A stretch of 64,000 nt of DNA from Shigella phage Sf22. Shown in pieces: positions 14,167 to 52,747 of the stretch. The notes below the pieces were generated by a model. The model made no database searches. It was not told where the DNA came from and saw nothing but the letters and a program-made list of their open reading frames with translations. Positions within the stretch are counted from its first letter, which is position 1. Every line of letters begins with the position of its first letter. The stretch lies in sequence record MF158045, one strand, 5' to 3'. Both the position numbers and the translations under genes were made by a program.

Positions 14167-14442
14167 TCATAGCTCAATCTCAGCGATTTTCATTTCATTA
14201 CTATTAATAGCCTCTTTAAGACTATCTGAAAGAATTACATTCCAGTGGTCATTCATATGACCATTAACTAAGCGTGTAATTTCTTCAGGAGTTGAAAAAT
14301 AAGGCTGATCAGACTCCCAATGCGATAATCCTAAGCGAGTATAAATCATGCCTTCATCATCGCTCGAATATTCAACTGACACAAACTCATCAGTTATTTT
14401 ATGTTTAGCGTAATAAAATTTAAATTTCATTTTATTCTCCAA
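14167..14442 (-). CDS. Hypothetical protein (91 aa)
   Basis: ORF track; early promoter immediately upstream. Confidence 0.55.
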   Translation of the reverse strand: MENKMKFKFYYAKHKITDEFVSVEYSSDDEGMIYTRLGLSHWESDQPYFSTPEEITRLVNGHMNDHWNVILSDSLKEAINSNEMKIAEIEL

Positions 14443-14467
14443 ATCCGTATCAGTAGTTGATAGTTGT

Positions 14468-14497
14468 ATAGTACCACGGTCCTTGTGGTATGTAAAC
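14468..14497 (-). promoter_or_regulatory. T4-type early promoter upstream of ORF 14167-14442
   Basis: Minus strand GTTTAC, 18 nt, TACTAT; same leader motif as the motA promoter. Confidence 0.6.
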
Positions 14498-14512
14498 TGT
14501 TTTGTGAAATTT

Positions 14513-15070
14513 TTAAATGGAAAGATACCATCCGCTGTAGTTGCTTTTTCTTACAACTTTACGAAGGTCTTCTCTGTCACCGATGAACTTCGGAGTGTAC
14601 TGGATGACACCTGGATGAATTTCTTTAGTGTTGAATATAATTATACAGTCAGCGACTTGATGATTTAGAATGGGCCCTAGATTTATTCCAGAACCATATG
14701 GATACTCTCCGCTGCATCCTGTTGTTACCGAAATCCAACGCGAGTCAGTTTGATGTGTCTTAACTTCTACGCGAAGCCCGCAGTATTTTGGATGCGCCAA
14801 TACATCCCATGCATATGTGTACGGATCATCGACATCTTCTTGGCCTTTATTGACATATCCGCTTAGCCAATCTGCCACAAAAAACTCTGCGTACACAGCG
14901 ATACGGCATCTTTCGATAACTTCTGCCTTATCCTGATTTGGATTTTGTTTTAAAGAGTATCTTGCTGTATCAGCAATTTTGACCTTCATTTCACTAGTCA
15001 AGTCACTGTTCGATAGGGTAAATGTCGGAATCTGAAATAGTCTCCGTAAACCCGGATTCGTTTTCTGCAT
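14513..15070 (-). CDS. denB: Endonuclease IV DenB
   Basis: 185 aa (T4 DenB 185 aa); position between ndd cluster and rIIB. Confidence 0.8.
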   Translation of the reverse strand: MQKTNPGLRRLFQIPTFTLSNSDLTSEMKVKIADTARYSLKQNPNQDKAEVIERCRIAVYAEFFVADWLSGYVNKGQEDVDDPYTYAWDVLAHPKYCGLRVEVKTHQTDSRWISVTTGCSGEYPYGSGINLGPILNHQVADCIIIFNTKEIHPGVIQYTPKFIGDREDLRKVVRKSNYSGWYLSI

Positions 15071-15099
15071 TAAACTTTCCTTTATGTCGGAATCATAAT

Positions 15100-15130
15100 T
15101 TCTCTTAAAACAAAAGGGCCGAAGCCCTTA
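15100..15130 (-). terminator. UUCG-loop hairpin downstream of the 64-aa ORF
   Basis: Minus strand AAGGGC-UUCG-GCCCUU plus U-rich tail. Confidence 0.5.
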
Positions 15131-15132
15131 TT

Positions 15133-15327
15133 TTATTTGAATTGTGCGATTCTTTTCTCTAGACACTCAGCATAAGATTTCATTGAGATGAACTGTGAAA
15201 GCAGCAGTTCTTGCTCAACTGCACTAACCGTTAGAAACTTTGTGCTTTCTAAAAATTTGCTCAGTGCATTAATTTTGAGCATTAATTGATCGTATTCTTC
15301 TTTTACTCGTGCTTGATAACCTAACAT
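15133..15327 (-). CDS. Hypothetical protein (64 aa)
   Basis: ORF track; flanked on both sides by near-identical GGGCCGAAGCCC hairpins. Confidence 0.5.
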   Translation of the reverse strand: MLGYQARVKEEYDQLMLKINALSKFLESTKFLTVSAVEQELLLSQFISMKSYAECLEKRIAQFK

Positions 15328-15346
15328 AATTTTCCTTAATATGATA

Positions 15347-15362
15347 AGGGCCGAAGCCCTTA
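15347..15362 (-). terminator. UUCG-loop hairpin downstream of rIIB
   Basis: Same AAGGGCTTCGGCCCTT element as at 15114-15129. Confidence 0.5.
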
Positions 15363-16298
15363 TTTAAATTGTTCAGTAACGTCTTCAACTACTTCGTATT
15401 GGCAGGTACGCATTTTAGCATCGTTGTAATCAATCGGAATTGATACTACATCACGCGGATGTACTTTAACTTTTACAACTCGGCTGGTTGAACTGCCAAA
15501 GTGACGAATATAAGATTTAGAACACACATGCAGACCACGAGAACAAGTTTGTGTATCATCGTCATTTACACGAGTACGTGGCATTTTAACTACTTTACCA
15601 GGACTGTTATCAAAGGTATTTGAGTGACAGTCAAAGTAATTGCTACGAACTACTTTCCAAGCATAGAAGTAACCATCTTCTGTAATTTCAATATCGTTTG
15701 CTACCAAGAAATCAAAGAGTCGAGATACCGCTTTCTGGCTTGGGTTTTCCAGCAGATTTTCCAAGAACGGAAAATAAAATTCAAAGTTTTCGCCTTTTTC
15801 CATCGAGTCAAGAATACGATCAACCAAACCAGACCGCAATTCGATATTTTGATAGAACAAGCTTCCACCTTCAATTCGAACATCGCCGGAAATATATTTT
15901 TCAACAGCGCGACGAACATTAATTTTTTGTGCCGCTTCTTCCAACTTATCTGCTACGAGCAGATTAAGAATTTCCTGGAAGTTTGAATGAGTATTAGGAG
16001 TTGCGTTATAAGTTACGCCATCAACAGTAATTGAAATGAATTTTTTAGATGCATTCCAAATAATGTCAGATTTAGCAACTGGAGCAATAACTGCATCGCT
16101 ATTAACTTTAACTGTAATATCACCGCTAATAGTAACTTTAGGGTGTTTAGCTTCTTCAGCATTTTTCAAAACACGACGGATTGTGTCAACCGATACATCC
16201 TTCCAATAAGCTAATTCCTGCTGAGTGTAATTACCACTTGAATACAGTTTAACAATTTCAGCTTGTTCGTTTTTGGTCAGGCATTTAATATTGTACAT
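15360..16298 (-). CDS. rIIB: rIIB protein
   Basis: 312 aa (T4 rIIB 312 aa); directly downstream of rIIA. Confidence 0.9.
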   Translation of the reverse strand: MYNIKCLTKNEQAEIVKLYSSGNYTQQELAYWKDVSVDTIRRVLKNAEEAKHPKVTISGDITVKVNSDAVIAPVAKSDIIWNASKKFISITVDGVTYNATPNTHSNFQEILNLLVADKLEEAAQKINVRRAVEKYISGDVRIEGGSLFYQNIELRSGLVDRILDSMEKGENFEFYFPFLENLLENPSQKAVSRLFDFLVANDIEITEDGYFYAWKVVRSNYFDCHSNTFDNSPGKVVKMPRTRVNDDDTQTCSRGLHVCSKSYIRHFGSSTSRVVKVKVHPRDVVSIPIDYNDAKMRTCQYEVVEDVTEQFK

Positions 16299-16309
16299 AA
16301 TTTTCCTTA

Positions 16310-18487
16310 TTAGGCCGCAAGGGCCTTCATAGTTTTGGCGATTTGGGAAACTTCATCATCACTTAAAGAGTTGCGATATCCGATGAAGTCGGAAACAATA
16401 CGGAATTTCTTGGTAAACTCAGCAACCATTTTATCACTATTTTTTGAAGCATTACGTGATAATTCATCAAAAAGATTAGTTACCGTCCAGATGTCATGAC
16501 CGATGGTATCTTTTCCACCATTAAAATATACACCACGCAATGAACTAACTATATTAGCGAGTCGTGTATATTCTTCAGAAACTTCATCTGTACTGAAGTA
16601 CTTCATCATAAAATCTAGTTCAGGATACTTGATAATTTTATCAATATATCGTTGAGCTGAACTTGAATAACCTACGTACTTATCATAATCTACATCATCA
16701 AAAGCATCTACATATAAATCACGCAAAGCTTCAAAAATACATTGGCACTGACCGAGTTCTTTTACCTTTTTCTGTAAAAGCGGACGAATAACATAAAATT
16801 CATTAATGCCAATAAGATTAGCCATACGAATCAAAATATTCATAGATGGATGACAAAGAGATGTAGTACCATCCATAGAGAAAATATCAGAACGATGCAT
16901 ATACGCTACATACCCAGTAATTTCATCTGCTTCTGATGTGAGCGTAAATAATTCCTCTTTTTCCCAGCGCCCGTCTTTAATTTCAAACTTAAATGCTGTA
17001 GCAGCTTTAGGACGAGGAGCTTTACTTTTAACTATCTTTGGAATATAGCTTTTAACTAAAGCTTCAATTTCTGACAAATAATGAATGTTAACTTCATCAC
17101 TTTCAAACATCGCCATAATATCAGGAAGCAAATCAATCTGCGATTCTACTTCTGGATTAATAAACAGAAGGCGTTCGTTGTGATGAATATTCAAAGTGTT
17201 ATTAAATTCACTATCATCTAGCGCATGTGCTAATCCACGGACAATATTAACACGATTTTTAATATTATCAATAACGATATTAATTTTTGTTGTATTAATA
17301 CCAAACAGACGATAACTTGACGCAACGGCTGATGTTTCATGACTTTGCTTAATGCGTTTCAGTCGAGGGTCAAGATTTACTTCATACACAACTCCTGCAT
17401 TGCATAACTTACTGTCAGGTTCAAACATGCTCTGCATCTTTTTATATGACAGATTTTTAGTCGTGAATTTGACTGAATTACTAATCATATAATCTCGAGC
17501 AGAATACCCCATCTTCATTAATTCGCGATATGCGTGACGAGGAGATGTAGATTCTTTAAATCGTTTTACATCTTCATTAAATGCTTTCTCACTGAGTTCT
17601 TTAACTCGTTCAATGATATTTTTACGAGTGCGATCATCTAGTGAAAGAGCCTCGCGAGATGGAGCAATATCAAGTGAACCCATTGGAAACTTAATGTAAT
17701 TCACTTCATTGCGAATGCTTAGCCAGTTACGGTCTCTAATAACACCATCGATAGGATAAACAATACCGCCATAGATAGCATATAATCCACCACGATCAGG
17801 CCAGTATCTTTCTGGATTTACACCATAATAATCATCAAAATCAGGAAAATAATCAATTTCGCGGTCAAGACCATTAATGATAGCCAAATCTTTGAACGGT
17901 CGCATGATATAAGAAACTTCATAAGCAAAGTTTCTAAAGTCTTTTTCTTCAACTGGAACTACGATTTCAATACCAGTTTTATCATCTGGACCCATTTCTT
18001 TTACGAATGTAGGTTTAATCTGTGGGCCATCACCATCCATGTAAGCTACATAACCACGAATTTCACCTTTATGATACGAAGTAATACTAAACGTATCAGT
18101 ATAACTAAACGGAGATTTAGAACCTAAACCAAATCCGCCAATAAAGTCATTAGATTCAGCCTTAGATGAACTGAAGTATGAATTATACAGCCCAGGAGAA
18201 TTATCATCACCCTGAATATCAAAATCACTCATACCCGGACCAAAATCTCGACAAACAAATCGTGGATCTAATCGTCCTGGAACTTGAATGATAAATTTTT
18301 CAGGATTTCCATTAAGTGCATGAGCATCAATCATGTTAGTAATCAATTCACGGACTACTGCGCGAATCTTGTTTGTATACAAATCAGATGACAGAATTTT
18401 AAATACTTTAGGATTTGCTGCGATGCTAAATGCTTTTGATTTAGAACCATTGCCAAGAATTGTTTCTTTTTCAGTGGTGATAATCAT
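16310..18487 (-). CDS. rIIA: rIIA protein
   Basis: 725 aa (T4 rIIA 725 aa); ATPase-like N-terminal region; synteny. Confidence 0.9.
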
Positions 18488-20625: not shown

Positions 20626-20641
20626 AAAGGCCCGAAGGCCT
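20622..20641 (-). terminator. UUCG-loop hairpin downstream of lipoprotein ORF, upstream of gene 39
   Basis: AAAGGCC-TTCG-GGCCTTT (minus-strand reading). Confidence 0.45.
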
Positions 20642-20642
20642 T

Positions 20643-20912
20643 TTATTTAAAACGAATAGTTGAATCCTTAAAGAACAGCCCAGAACATACTGTTCCTTCT
20701 ACTTTCTGCCCAGTAGGTCCAACAGCACGAAATCCAGTATGTTGGAAATCATTTTCAGAGCAACCAAACCAATTATATCCAGTGATTTCAATATTAGTAA
20801 AACCGCTTGATGACAAAATTTTGGTTGCATTATCAGCATCAGTACATCCTGCTAAAGACACTGCTAATACTAATGCTGCGATAGAACGATTAATATATTT
20901 CATAATTTTCAC
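20643..20912 (-). CDS. Putative lipoprotein (89 aa)
   Basis: Signal peptide with lipobox LAGC (AALVLAVSLAGCTD). Confidence 0.55.
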   Translation of the reverse strand: MKIMKYINRSIAALVLAVSLAGCTDADNATKILSSSGFTNIEITGYNWFGCSENDFQHTGFRAVGPTGQKVEGTVCSGLFFKDSTIRFK

Positions 20913-44570: not shown

Positions 44571-44630
44571 AGATATTCCTTAGTTTATAGCCCGAGTTAT
44601 TAGGCTCTTGATATATTATACTCCAAATAA

Positions 44631-44645
44631 GGGGCCGAAGCCCCT
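44631..44645 (-). promoter_or_regulatory. UUCG-loop hairpin in regA-43 intergenic leader
   Basis: GGGGC-TTCG-GCCCC (minus strand) just upstream of a TATAAT and the gene 43 RBS. Confidence 0.4.
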
Positions 44646-44648
44646 TGC

Positions 44649-51125: not shown

Positions 51126-51287
51126 ATATCAAGAACCGTCATTGAAATGCAAAATAAAATTATTGAAATAAATCCATCTGGAGTGCTAAAGAACCCAATC
51201 CAGCATGCTCTAGTGAATAGATAAAATGCAAGAAAAAGTATCACATATCCAAGAAATATCATTATATCAAACTCCGTATAAAGCTAA

Positions 51288-51303
51288 AGGGCCGAAGCCC
51301 TTT
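51288..51303 (-). terminator. UUCG-loop hairpin at 3-prime end of a-gt
   Basis: AAGGGC-TTCG-GCCCTT overlapping the a-gt stop codon. Confidence 0.45.
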
Positions 51304-52504
51304 ATTTTGTAATAATGTCAAACTGTTCTTTAAAGCAGAAGCTTGAATCTTGATGCTGATACAAAAATTCATATGCTTTTTCTCGCTCACGGTCATAAAG
51401 AGCTCGGTCAGATGACAGTTCTTTAATACGCTCGAATGTTGATTCCATATCATTTTCATCAAACCAAACGATACCGCTATCATGCGAAATTAGCGGAGTA
51501 TTATCAACACGGAATTTTAAATTTTCGCCAGTAGATTTCCAAAATACCGGAATTGTTCCACATGCACCAAGCTCGAGATGAGTATATTCTAAAGAGCGCT
51601 GTAGATATTTTTTATCCAACTTACTCAGCTGATAACCAAAACCGGATTTACTCATACGTTCAAGCATTTCGCTATTTACATAACGGTCAAGAATTTGCGT
51701 TGGCAAATTAGGAGCAATTTTAATTTGGTCTACTTGATGAAGACGATAATACTCGTATGGAATTCCTTTTTCTTTAATAGGAATGAACGCTGGAGAACGT
51801 TCCAGACCTTCCATAATAGTACTTAGTCCTGCAGGTTTAAGATGTTTTTCATGAAAATCAAACATCTGATAAAAACCTTTCCATGTAGTCGTACGACCAA
51901 TCCAACGGTTGATATTCATGTTAATTTCAGAAACATCTTTCCAGTAAGTTGACCGAACCTTCGCAATATCCATAGGAGGCTGAAAGTTATATACTGTCGG
52001 TGCTTCTTCAATATCATCAAACAGAGAAACAGTTTCTGGATACCATTCTTTCATCAGAACTTTATTAAAATCACCATTATCAGAATGGCTAAAAATAACA
52101 TCAGCTCGACGAACAGTTTCTTCTAATCCCAAATTTCGACGCAAAGAAAGAGAAGAATGGTCATGCTGATAAACTACAACACGAACCGAAGGTTTAATGT
52201 TATCAATAATTTTTTTATAGTTATTAATAGTGTCTTCTTCAACCGAAGTAGCAGGAACTGAATTGATAATTAGAATATCACAATCATTTACCAGCTTAAG
52301 TGTTTTATCATATTCTTTTGCCAATAAAACCGGAATTGAAAATGATTTATAATCATGCGCGCAATTACGAGTAAATGATTTATCTTTAGCATAAACCAAA
52401 GTCACTTCATGACCATTTTTAATAAACCAATCACGTTGCTCGAGTGAGAATTTTGTTACACCACAACCTTCAAGACCTCGAGCCATAAAAATACATACTT
52501 TCAT
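51302..52504 (-). CDS. a-gt: Alpha-glucosyltransferase (HMC-DNA alpha-glucosylation)
   Basis: 400 aa; N-terminus CIFMARGLEGCGVTKFSLEQRDWFIKNGHEV matches T4 AGT as recalled. Confidence 0.9.
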   Translation of the reverse strand: MKVCIFMARGLEGCGVTKFSLEQRDWFIKNGHEVTLVYAKDKSFTRNCAHDYKSFSIPVLLAKEYDKTLKLVNDCDILIINSVPATSVEEDTINNYKKIIDNIKPSVRVVVYQHDHSSLSLRRNLGLEETVRRADVIFSHSDNGDFNKVLMKEWYPETVSLFDDIEEAPTVYNFQPPMDIAKVRSTYWKDVSEINMNINRWIGRTTTWKGFYQMFDFHEKHLKPAGLSTIMEGLERSPAFIPIKEKGIPYEYYRLHQVDQIKIAPNLPTQILDRYVNSEMLERMSKSGFGYQLSKLDKKYLQRSLEYTHLELGACGTIPVFWKSTGENLKFRVDNTPLISHDSGIVWFDENDMESTFERIKELSSDRALYDREREKAYEFLYQHQDSSFCFKEQFDIITK

Positions 52505-52552: not shown

Positions 52553-52557
52553 ATATA

Positions 52558-52571
52558 GGAGCCGAAGCTCC
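52558..52571 (-). terminator. UUCG-loop hairpin upstream of a-gt middle promoter
   Basis: GGAGC-TTCG-GCTCC (minus-strand reading). Confidence 0.4.
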
Positions 52572-52747
52572 TATCCGCATAATACGCCATACAGAGGCTC
52601 GTTAGAACTTTTAAATTTTATGCGCTTATATTTTATAGTTCCTTCTGCTTTAGCTTTATCATGAGACTCTTTAAAGCGTCTCATCATTTCCTCTTTAGAG
52701 GAACGAATTTTATTATAATCTATTTCAGAAGTCTGGGTGTTCATCTT

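Follow-up and report, generated by a model that had tools for sequence, protein, structure and literature searches.

The 64-aa ATG open reading frame at 15133-15327, on the minus strand of the window (the whole 64-kb stretch of DNA that was analyzed), is by sequence comparison the already annotated phage T4 gene denB.1, and the identical elements on either side of it are very probably ordinary UUCG hairpins of the T4 family rather than the boundaries of a cassette that actively moves. The sequence-only reading had placed the ORF in the denB-rIIB interval of a T-even phage, and this assignment was correct: the region is the minus-strand early/middle unit rIIA-rIIB-denB.1-(DUF7418 remnant)-denB of a Tequatrovirus (T4-like) genome. 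Upstream of denB.1 lies rIIB (15360-16298, minus strand, 312 aa), which shares 95–98% DNA identity with annotated rIIB of T4 and its relatives, and the downstream neighbor is denB, encoding endonuclease IV (14513-15070, minus strand, 185 aa as annotated). The best DNA match of the locus was Shigella phage ESh31 (98.5% over 1786 nt), with T4 at 95.9%. In T4, denB.1 is annotated in the same place as the ORF of the window, and the order rIIB, hairpin, denB.1, hairpin, denB is the same, as are the hairpin cores.

The DenB.1 protein of the window is identical to that of T4 (T4p277, UniProt P39251) at 63 of 64 residues (98%), and the gene is also annotated in RB32, AR1 and other phages. It matched the Pfam family PF21825 (crAss001_48-related) over residues 4–61 with 69 bits (cutoff 24.8, E = 3e-19), and it also matched phrog_774. 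Across five genera, 24 of the 64 residues were invariant, and among 12 Tequatrovirus alleles the variable sites were distributed over the three codon positions as 6/2/16, a third-position bias; at the sequence level, the gene appears to be under purifying selection. AlphaFold2 predicted two long helices (pLDDT 95), which would make the protein a small antiparallel helical hairpin. A sequence search of the PDB gave a chance-level match only (E = 0.5), Foldseek against the PDB returned generic helical hairpins with every E value above 0.1, and a word-indexed protein search found close relatives only. The T4 omics supplement places denB.1 in the middle class for both RNA and protein and reports that the protein was detected in infection (PMC9697503), while CRISPRi-ART scored the gene as "Not Fit," meaning that knockdown caused no laboratory fitness defect (PMC11879866), and a loss of denB.1 would therefore be tolerable in the laboratory. 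In the literature, the name denB.1 appeared in one main text only, and crAss001_48 in none of the papers. We thus regard denB.1 as a known, conserved, expressed and laboratory-dispensable gene, and its flanking "repeats" as probable members of a dispersed T4 hairpin family.

Copies of a UUCG hairpin do stand on both sides of the ORF, as had been claimed, although the two elements, described as near-identical, are in fact identical over 20 nt. The exact 20-mer AAGGGCCGAAGCCCTTATTT occurs on the plus strand at 15114-15133, where the first copy had been placed, and at 15346-15365, a 1-nt shift from the 15347-15366 given for the second; there are 0 mismatches between the copies, and these direct repeats are 232 nt apart. 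Read along the minus strand, which is the transcribed one, both elements give AAAUAAGGGC-UUCG-GCCCUU and so form a C(UUCG)G tetraloop hairpin. The hairpin at the rIIB stop (HP1, holding the copy at 15346-15365) and the one after denB.1 (HP2, holding the copy at 15114-15133) both read GGGC-UUCG-GCCC on this coding strand, with the UUCG loop closed by C-G. Predicted folding energies were -11.9 kcal/mol for HP1 (z = -3.6) and -11.4 kcal/mol for HP2 (z = -2.3) relative to shuffles, and both hairpins were retained in the fold of the entire 341-nt interval. We observed six matches to the 20-mer at three mismatches or fewer, compared with none in 100 dinucleotide-preserving shuffles, which rules out chance for the 20-mer sequence itself.

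Hairpins of this kind are common in the window: CUUCGG sites whose stem has 3 bp or more number 17, of which about 14 reach 5 bp or more, and the core AAGGGCUUCGGCCCUU is common to about five. It is therefore not very unlikely to meet a pair such as HP1 and HP2 where adjacent genes join. The UUCG loop lay on the minus (transcribed) strand in 13 of the 17 stem-loops, most of which were preceded by a stop codon and followed by an SD/ATG or a -10-like TATAAT sequence. The CUUCGG hairpin was reportedly discovered in T4 mRNA by Tuerk et al. in 1988. A later review describes it as originally from an mRNA and as extraordinarily stable (PMC4371310). HP1 and HP2 share with the C(UUCG)G hairpins of T4 mRNA the C-G-closed UUCG loop, the short G+C-rich stem, the placement between cistrons of the transcribed strand and the many copies per genome; we found no essential difference, and both are instances of that family. 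A search of 14400-16400 against Rfam returned no family at E ≤ 1. The identity of the two hairpins would follow from GGGC-UUCG-GCCC between A/U-rich flanks being the most frequent form of the family in T4-type genomes, and not from their delimiting a mobile element.

HP1 (15344-15363, minus strand) is a C(UUCG)G hairpin, AUAAGGGC-UUCG-GCCCUUAU, with an 8-bp stem that includes the rIIB TAA stop (15362-15360) in its 5′ arm; on its 3′ side it runs into CAUAUUAAGGAAAAUU-AUG of denB.1, with no U-run. Sixteen distinct sequences, drawn from at least seven sampled lineages, had a hairpin in the same place. In their alignment, 95.8% of cells were paired and four of six stem pairs showed double (compensatory) changes, a covariation score that was matched by none of 500 shuffles, and across genera the UUCG loop and its closing C-G pair were nearly invariant and the stems covaried. 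These comparisons point to a stable fold beyond what composition would give, kept by selection. HP1 failed the test for an intrinsic terminator, with CAUAUUAAGG after the stem and no flag from the terminator scan. Given the missing U-run, and since many orthologous HP1s are followed by a purine-rich SD sequence and likewise have no U-run, HP1 is not a canonical terminator, and its function is the least certain for want of that U-run. In the mRNA, HP1 would fold where rIIB stops and serve as an attenuator, as protection of the 3′ end, or as both, setting rIIB apart from denB.1. In T4, the RNA of rIIB is classed as early and that of denB.1 and denB as middle (PMC9697503), which agrees with a transcriptional discontinuity at HP1; an unmapped middle promoter within the 3′ end of rIIB would be another possible source of this difference.

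HP2 (15105-15129, minus strand) has the form AAGGGC-UUCG-GCCCUU (15129-15114) followed by UUUUGUUUU (15113-15105). It passed the sequence test for an intrinsic terminator, with a 6-bp G+C-rich stem and then TTGTTTTAAG, and the terminator scan flagged it as terminator-like on both strands; its A-tract and U-tract are able to lengthen the stem. Compared with Rho-independent terminators, HP2 is alike in its G+C-rich hairpin and the tract that follows, HP1 is unlike in having no U-run, and a hairpin with a U-run is also found 3′ of rIIB in RB69, Nispero, Pm5461 and Henu6-like loci. In several GenBank records, this interval carries annotated "terminator" features. In an rIIB-anchored survey, a hairpin occupied the same place 3′ of denB.1 in EcS1, CHI14, PM2 and Moonvirus loci, and we accordingly rejected the notion that HP2 is specific to Tequatrovirus. 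The core of this hairpin in EcS1 (AAGGGC-UUCG-GCCCUU) is identical to that of HP2, and in CHI14 it reads AAGGCC-UGAA-GGCCUU, so that across EcS1 and CHI14 the position is conserved despite changes in stem and loop. HP2 may thus serve as a (partial) intrinsic terminator downstream of denB.1, and from the sequence we infer terminator, attenuator or stabilizer activity for the two hairpins.

The likeness of the repeats reaches slightly beyond the 20-mer into both upstream genes, and this bears on a different account of their identity, namely that one "QFK-stop-hairpin" end was copied from rIIB to denB.1 or in reverse by ectopic duplication or gene conversion. RIIB and DenB.1 of Tequatrovirus, the only genus in which HP1 and HP2 are identical, both end in QFK-stop (ACAATTYAAATAA), with a 4–5-nt indel and the same hairpin next, and in RB32 the 13 nt preceding the hairpin (ACAATTTAAATAA) are the same at both sites except for a 4-nt ATAA insertion. 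Homologues elsewhere end in (Q/R/N)F-stop without the Lys (EQF* in SP18 rIIB; RF* or NF* in DenB.1 of PEi20, F48 and EcS1). Such copying would be primed by the common CAATTY (Gln-Phe) codons, and it would have rewritten the C-terminus of Tequatrovirus DenB.1. When the window's GGGC-type hairpins are compared, HP1 does come closest to HP2 in its flanks, but other hairpins of the family follow with little distance (flank scores of 9.0 versus 8.0 upstream and 8.0 versus 7.0 downstream), and the Gln/Arg-Phe end of DenB.1 is ancestral. Moreover, EcS1 has AAGGGC-UUCG-GCCCUU after denB.1 together with a different HP1, and the HP1 of PM2 has AAGGGC stems with another loop, which indicates that this stem type is recurrent and that HP2, instead of having been copied recently, is probably old. 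We therefore consider copying unlikely.

The proposal that had been made for this locus was that denB.1 forms a small cassette which recombination between the hairpin repeats adds or removes. With homologous recombination as the process, denB.1 would be a promoter-less analogue of a PeSL (promoter-early stem-loop, a mobile regulatory cassette of T4-type phages) and might come out as a mini-circle. Exact direct repeats over 20 nt at a spacing of 232 nt speak for it, as do the lack of a laboratory fitness cost on denB.1 knockdown and the PeSL recombination and mini-circles described in T4-type hyperplastic regions, including the neighboring ndd.4/.5 in T4 versus PST (PMC2839356, PMC4122927). Within Tequatrovirus, we found denB.1 DNA in 495 records versus 499 with the rIIB 3′ end (at least 90% identity), a survey that consisted of counts plus about 100 inspected rows or loci, and both hairpins were present in all 17 of the intervals readable end to end (the window and 16 loci). 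In this genus, the alignment comparison thus gave the outcome named beforehand as counting against the cassette, an ORF and two hairpins that are invariantly present. We also modeled hairpin-by-hairpin deletion as a 669-nt product and compared it with 50,697 phage records; the best 40 matches all kept the insert of about 232 nt, aligning in two to three pieces over about 900 nt. Removal of denB.1 between the hairpins would give the junction ACTGAACAATTYAAATAAGGGCTTCGGCCCTTTTGTTTT, and the junction ACTGAACAATTYAAATAAGGGCTTCGGCCCTTTTG would speak for hairpin-mediated loss. Exact-pattern scans for the deletion junction returned 0 hits in IMG/VR versus 5 intact HP1 junctions and 0 in JGI metagenomes versus 8, scans that are low in power given so few intact controls. 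The shortened T4 clone T4_7t1 (OL964745) was considered as a denB.1-less record and rejected, as the gene is retained there and the deletion joins rIIA to rIIB.

The indels that do segregate in the interval lie away from the hairpins, at microhomologies (TAAAAG, TGATT) or illegitimate junctions, and comprise a deletion in the DUF7418 gene, a further 19-nt deletion and a 265-bp duplication in Sf24. The DUF7418 gene, of the RB32ORF268c/RB69ORF272c family, is represented in the window by a remnant at 15071-15096 (minus strand), recognized by homology to the full-length gene, with the 5′ ATGATT and 3′ AAAGGAAAGTTTA ends kept around internal deletions; its SD and ATG are still there, in a mini-ORF of four codons, AUGAUUCCGACAUAA (15096-15082), with the denB Shine-Dalgarno sequence next. 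Full-length copies, with 310–312 nt after HP2, occur in RB32, Sf24 and six of the surveyed loci. The full-length gene matches PF24193 at E = 7e-35, and the proteins of RB32 and RB69 do so at E = 1e-35 to 1e-37. The remnant measures 94–98 nt in T4 and three surveyed loci and 74–76 nt in the window, ESh31 and one further locus, which differ from T4 by the additional 19-nt deletion between HP2 and denB.

Across genera, sequence comparison indicates that denB.1 is a facultative module of the T4 superfamily, and in this respect the claim of a gene gained or lost held. RB69 (Mosigvirus) and Nispero (Jiaodavirus) have no denB.1, and the gene is also missing from Cronus, Pm5461 and Henu6/ZZ1-like loci; like denB.1, the DUF7418 gene is variably present between genera. 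RB69 and Jiaodavirus-like phages keep exactly one UUCG hairpin between rIIB and the next gene, an "empty site" of the sort that recombination between hairpins would leave. Where junctions can be resolved, however, they fall at start codons or microhomologies rather than at hairpin repeats. In the best-resolved gain/loss pair, F48 and Nispero (RIIB 83% identical), the difference runs exactly from the ATG of denB.1 to the ATG of the next gene, without a second hairpin. In EcS1, CHI14 and PM2, denB.1 lies between two hairpins of unlike sequence, and these pairs cannot serve as recombination repeats because their sequences differ. The cassette idea thus finds support in the facultative presence of denB.1, but no deletion product appeared in the roughly 495 Tequatrovirus records, the 5 IMG/VR contigs or the 8 metagenome contigs. 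Since the QFK-stop extension and the RB69-type single hairpin are also what it would leave behind, hairpin recombination is possible as a historical event; as the explanation of this locus, we judge it quite unlikely.

Comparison with the PeSL of Arbiol et al. (2010; PMC2839356) and Comeau et al. (2014; PMC4122927) gave likenesses in the stem-loop after an upstream stop, the A/T-rich context, the upstream stop at the 5′ end and, at the 3′ end, the SD and ATG that belong to the next gene, as well as in a hyperplastic region with genes variable between relatives and in ORFs bracketed by repeated regulatory motifs. A PeSL unit combines the stem-loop with a sigma70-like early promoter (-35, about 17 nt, -10) in about 50 nt (PMC2839356, PMC4122927), whereas only 16–17 nt separate HP1 and HP2 from the next ATG and hold no sigma70-type promoter, which means that the two are not PeSLs as defined. 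The promoter scan gave a single overlapping match (9/12) at HP1/HP2 and 12 matches in the region versus 9.5 expected, none above shuffles. Nor did the breakpoints follow the PeSL pattern, since they lie at microhomologies and start codons, with no HP1-by-HP2 product in about 495 genomes. Other parts of the window do contain PeSL-like units of hairpin plus promoter, such as those near 20626, 44629 and 51285. A related proposal, that promoter-less UUCG hairpin-SD units form a minimal "terminator-only" class of PeSL type, yielding a rare denB.1 mini-circle or deletion and, as a fixed product, the single-hairpin rIIB-DUF7418 arrangement of RB69 and Jiaodavirus, strikes us as very doubtful. Under that proposal, the identity of HP1 and HP2 in Tequatrovirus may stem from gene conversion.

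A role for the hairpins as DNA, that is, as protein-binding or cruciform sites (for instance as hotspots of recombination, as signals for replication or packaging, or as attC-like folded sites), is highly improbable and was rejected along with the integron attC-like reading on strand bias, loop conservation and size: perfect palindromic stems could be extruded on either strand and HP2 scores as terminator-like on both, but the UUCG loop is on the transcribed strand only (13 of 17 stem-loops of the window being so oriented), a near-invariant UUCG loop and C-G closure with covarying stems is an RNA tetraloop signature, and stems of 6–8 bp are far below attC length. Like integron cassettes and lambdoid "morons," denB.1 is a small accessory ORF between structured or regulatory elements; unlike them, it is flanked by elements far shorter than attC whose orientation and conserved loop argue for RNA, and it has no promoter of its own as a moron would. 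We know of no integrase in T4-type phages.

We thus return to denB.1 as a known gene between ordinary T4-family hairpins, in an rIIB-denB interval that is plastic over long evolutionary time, with denB.1 and the DUF7418 gene each lost or gained and with start-codon or short microhomologies, not recombination between hairpins, at work wherever an event can be resolved. As denB.1, the hairpin family and modular shuffling in T4 hyperplastic regions have all been published already, this carries little weight as a discovery; it offers a checkable picture of the evolution of one small T4 interval, and a caution that a hairpin-bracketed ORF need not mean a mobile cassette. Across the sampled T4-like genera, denB.1 and the DUF7418 gene, both accessory, are gained and lost independently of each other, and the hairpins at the gene boundaries persist.

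Four minus-strand ORFs were listed in 14513-18487 of the window: rIIA (725 aa), rIIB (15360-16298, 312 aa), a 64-aa ORF at 15133-15327 and denB (14513-15070, 185 aa as annotated). The 20-mer AAGGGCCGAAGCCCTTATTT occurred without mismatch at both 15114-15133 and 15346-15365, and no such 20-mer was found in shuffled sequences. This bore out the sequence-only reading that the 64-aa ORF lies between two copies of one UUCG hairpin; the copies are exact, and the second had been misplaced by 1 nt. Read on the transcribed strand, both copies are AAAUAA-GGGC-UUCG-GCCC-UU. The first hairpin, HP1 (-11.9 kcal/mol, z = -3.6), overlaps the stop codon of rIIB, and 16 nt separate it from the small ORF's ATG downstream. 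The second, HP2 (-11.4 kcal/mol, z = -2.3), starts 3 nt past the stop of the small ORF and is followed by UUUUGUUUU. Both were retained when the entire interval was folded.

The closest match of the interval was Shigella phage ESh31 (98.5% identity), and several hundred Tequatrovirus genomes were 93-98% identical to it, among them T4, where the small ORF is annotated as denB.1 between rIIB and denB. The object is thus already known as T4 denB.1 flanked by CUUCGG hairpins. denB.1 is a real gene. Its product falls in Pfam PF21825 ("crAss001_48-related," 69 bits) and phrog_774, with 24 of 64 residues invariant among homologues that include those of Dhakavirus, Gaprivervirus, Kanagawavirus and Marfavirus, and variable sites among 12 Tequatrovirus alleles were distributed 6/2/16 by codon position. 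In T4, both its RNA and its protein are classed as middle in a time-course omics supplement (PMC9697503), and CRISPRi-ART knockdown caused no fitness defect (PMC11879866). The AlphaFold model is a confident helical hairpin (pLDDT 95), and searches of the PDB by sequence and by fold returned nothing informative; a role as a small protein-binding modulator is our guess.

The sequence-only reading had proposed a cassette gained or lost by recombination between the hairpin repeats, which was not borne out within Tequatrovirus. denB.1 DNA was present in 495 phage records and the neighbouring 212 nt of rIIB, at 90% identity or more, in 499, a gap of about four records that likely comes from short partial T4 entries. 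Among the Tequatrovirus intervals that could be followed over their full length, that of the window and 16 others taken from GenBank, IMG/VR and metagenomes, 17/17 contained denB.1 and both hairpins. When the product of a deletion between HP1 and HP2 was simulated, it had no contiguous match, the 232-nt insert being kept in the 40 best records, and the exact junction was not found in IMG/VR or metagenome contigs, where controls showed T4-like contigs to be few. At the level of the genus, this is the outcome that the sequence-only reading had named as counting against it. denB.1, both hairpins and denB were also intact in the mutant T4 clone T4_7t1 (OL964745.1; a laboratory derivative with a 159.7-kb genome). 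The deletion in that clone is of the rIIA-rIIB fusion type.

Within-genus variation instead adjoins HP2. A full DUF7418 gene (RB32ORF268c, PF24193; ~95-109 aa; here X) lies between HP2 and denB in about half of the sampled Tequatrovirus genomes. T4-type genomes carry an internal X deletion with its junction at a TAAAAG microhomology, and the window, ESh31 and one other compared locus (L039) have also lost 19 nt between TGATT repeats, which left AUGAUUCCGACAUAA. The "intergenic" HP2-denB spacer of the window (15071-15113, minus) is an X remnant (compare RB32 and Sf24). After the second deletion it holds a four-codon mini-ORF, MIPT*, which has an SD of its own. The stop codon of this mini-ORF and the denB SD overlap, which makes translational coupling possible. 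A 22-nt direct repeat (15022-15043 and 15084-15105, plus; 77% identity, spacing 62 nt) includes GATTCCGACAT when read on the coding strand. It matches a "DSDI" motif found near the X N-terminus and again in the X C-terminal tail, which overlaps the denB 5′ region. Where a Tequatrovirus carries X, the X 3′ end overlaps, in another frame, the opening ~23 codons of denB as annotated at 185 aa (window 14990-15070, minus; RB32 locus 991-1058; locus L009 1971-1990). The RB69, F48 and Sf24 annotations place the DenB start ~23-27 codons further in, at a conserved MKVKIAD, and the Tequatrovirus N-terminal extension and true start may deserve checking. Sf24 (NC_042078, locus 991-1585) carries a 265-bp tandem duplication over the denB.1 3′ part, HP2 and the X 5′ part, so that the locus has three hairpins along with two X-like ORFs (gp121, gp122); its junction shows little or no microhomology, and it could be either real or an assembly artefact.

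Across T4-like genera, a survey anchored on rIIB (40 IMG/VR loci plus GenBank records) revealed a modular rIIB-denB interval. A single hairpin separates rIIB from denB in Erwinia Cronus, Proteus Pm5461 and Acinetobacter Henu6/ZZ1-like phages, and from X and denB in RB69 and Jiaodavirus Nispero. denB.1 follows the hairpin after rIIB and abuts X ahead of denB, with no second hairpin, in IME08, SP18, PEi20, F48 and others; it stands between two hairpins ahead of X and denB in Tequatrovirus, EcS1 and CHI14, and ahead of denB in Pectobacterium PM2; and in Moonvirus Merlin, Moon and CF1 rIIB overlaps denB.1, followed by a hairpin and X. denB.1 is therefore facultative across genera, and the empty site that the earlier reading predicted exists in RB69, with one hairpin and no denB.1. 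The hairpin repeats are nonetheless unsupported as the mechanism. F48 and Nispero, whose rIIB proteins are 83% identical, differ by precisely the segment between the ATGs of denB.1 and X, with no second hairpin. Outside Tequatrovirus the two hairpins around denB.1 are unlike each other (AAGGAGAC-UUCG versus AAGGGC-UUCG in EcS1; UUCG versus UGAA loops in CHI14). DenB.1 identity between genera is 46-88%, a divergence similar in scale to those of rIIB and DenB; as an informal comparison, this is consistent with long residence. Together with the lack of a deletion product in Tequatrovirus, these results argue against recombination between hairpins. Separately, L075 (IMG/VR 2706796082) has an ORF with HNH/AP2-like homing-endonuclease motifs right after rIIB, and other small unrelated ORFs occupy distant T4-like intervals (L080, L084), with UUCG hairpins after them in L084.

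HP1 and HP2 are members of a known dispersed hairpin family. C(UUCG)G hairpins were reportedly discovered in T4 mRNA by Tuerk et al. in 1988. CUUCGG stem-loops number 17 in the window; ~14 have stems of 5 bp or longer, and 13/17 are on the minus strand. Judged from their flanks, most come after a stop codon and before the next SD/ATG or a -10-like TATAAT, and about five share a AAGGGCUUCGGCCCUU core. Since 6/17 have a GGGC/GCCC stem, family consensus best accounts for the two copies being identical. A copying event is possible because rIIB and denB.1 proteins both finish QFK-stop ahead of the hairpin, but HP1/HP2 flank similarity is only slightly above that to other family members. Sixteen distinct HP1 sequences from at least seven sampled lineages showed a nearly invariant UUCG loop and closing C-G pair, double compensatory changes in 4/6 stem pairs and 95.8% of cells paired, which no shuffle or slid register equalled; HP2 aligned in position in T4, RB32, EcS1 and CHI14, with covarying stems. 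This pattern is the signature of a coding-strand RNA element and not of a DNA recombination site. The HP1 loop is UUUG (GGGCUUUGGCCC) in two Tequatrovirus IMG/VR contigs (L011, L012), and among L020/L028 it is UCCG in a Dhakavirus-like contig, with a shortened GGGGA-CUUG-UCCCC in a Marfavirus-like one; the stem is kept, and the UUCG loop is not absolutely required.

Both hairpins are most likely intercistronic mRNA structures. HP2 passed a terminator scan (hairpin plus U-run) and HP1 failed it; no Rfam family matched at the locus. HP2 would act as a partial intrinsic terminator that ends or attenuates the rIIB-denB.1 message, and HP1 as an attenuator and/or 3′-end protector at the rIIB end. 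The unusual stability of C(UUCG)G hairpins has been reviewed (PMC4371310). In T4, rIIB RNA is classed as early and denB RNA, like that of denB.1, as middle (PMC9697503), which fits a discontinuity at HP1; a middle promoter that has yet to be mapped could also account for it.

Among published concepts, the PeSL comes closest. It joins a stem-loop to an early promoter, SD and ATG, and in hyperplastic regions of T4-type phages such units were demonstrated or argued to bring about indels and mini-circles; the regions include the ndd.4/.5 genes close by, in T4 versus PST (PMC2839356, PMC4122927). HP1 and HP2 lack the defining promoter, given only 16-17 nt from each hairpin to the following ATG and promoter signals no stronger than in shuffles, and they showed no recombination breakpoints; we therefore rejected them as PeSLs. 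Unlike them, stem-loop and early-promoter units at 20626-20643, 44629-44646, 51285-51304 and 52555-52574 (minus) match the published layout, their UUCG hairpins having TATAAT-like -10 boxes within ~10-30 nt (e.g., GGCCCUUUAgctttatacggagtttgatataat). The cassette idea thus receives partial support as deep history, because denB.1 is facultative across genera; as a mechanism of hairpin-repeat recombination it is unsupported.
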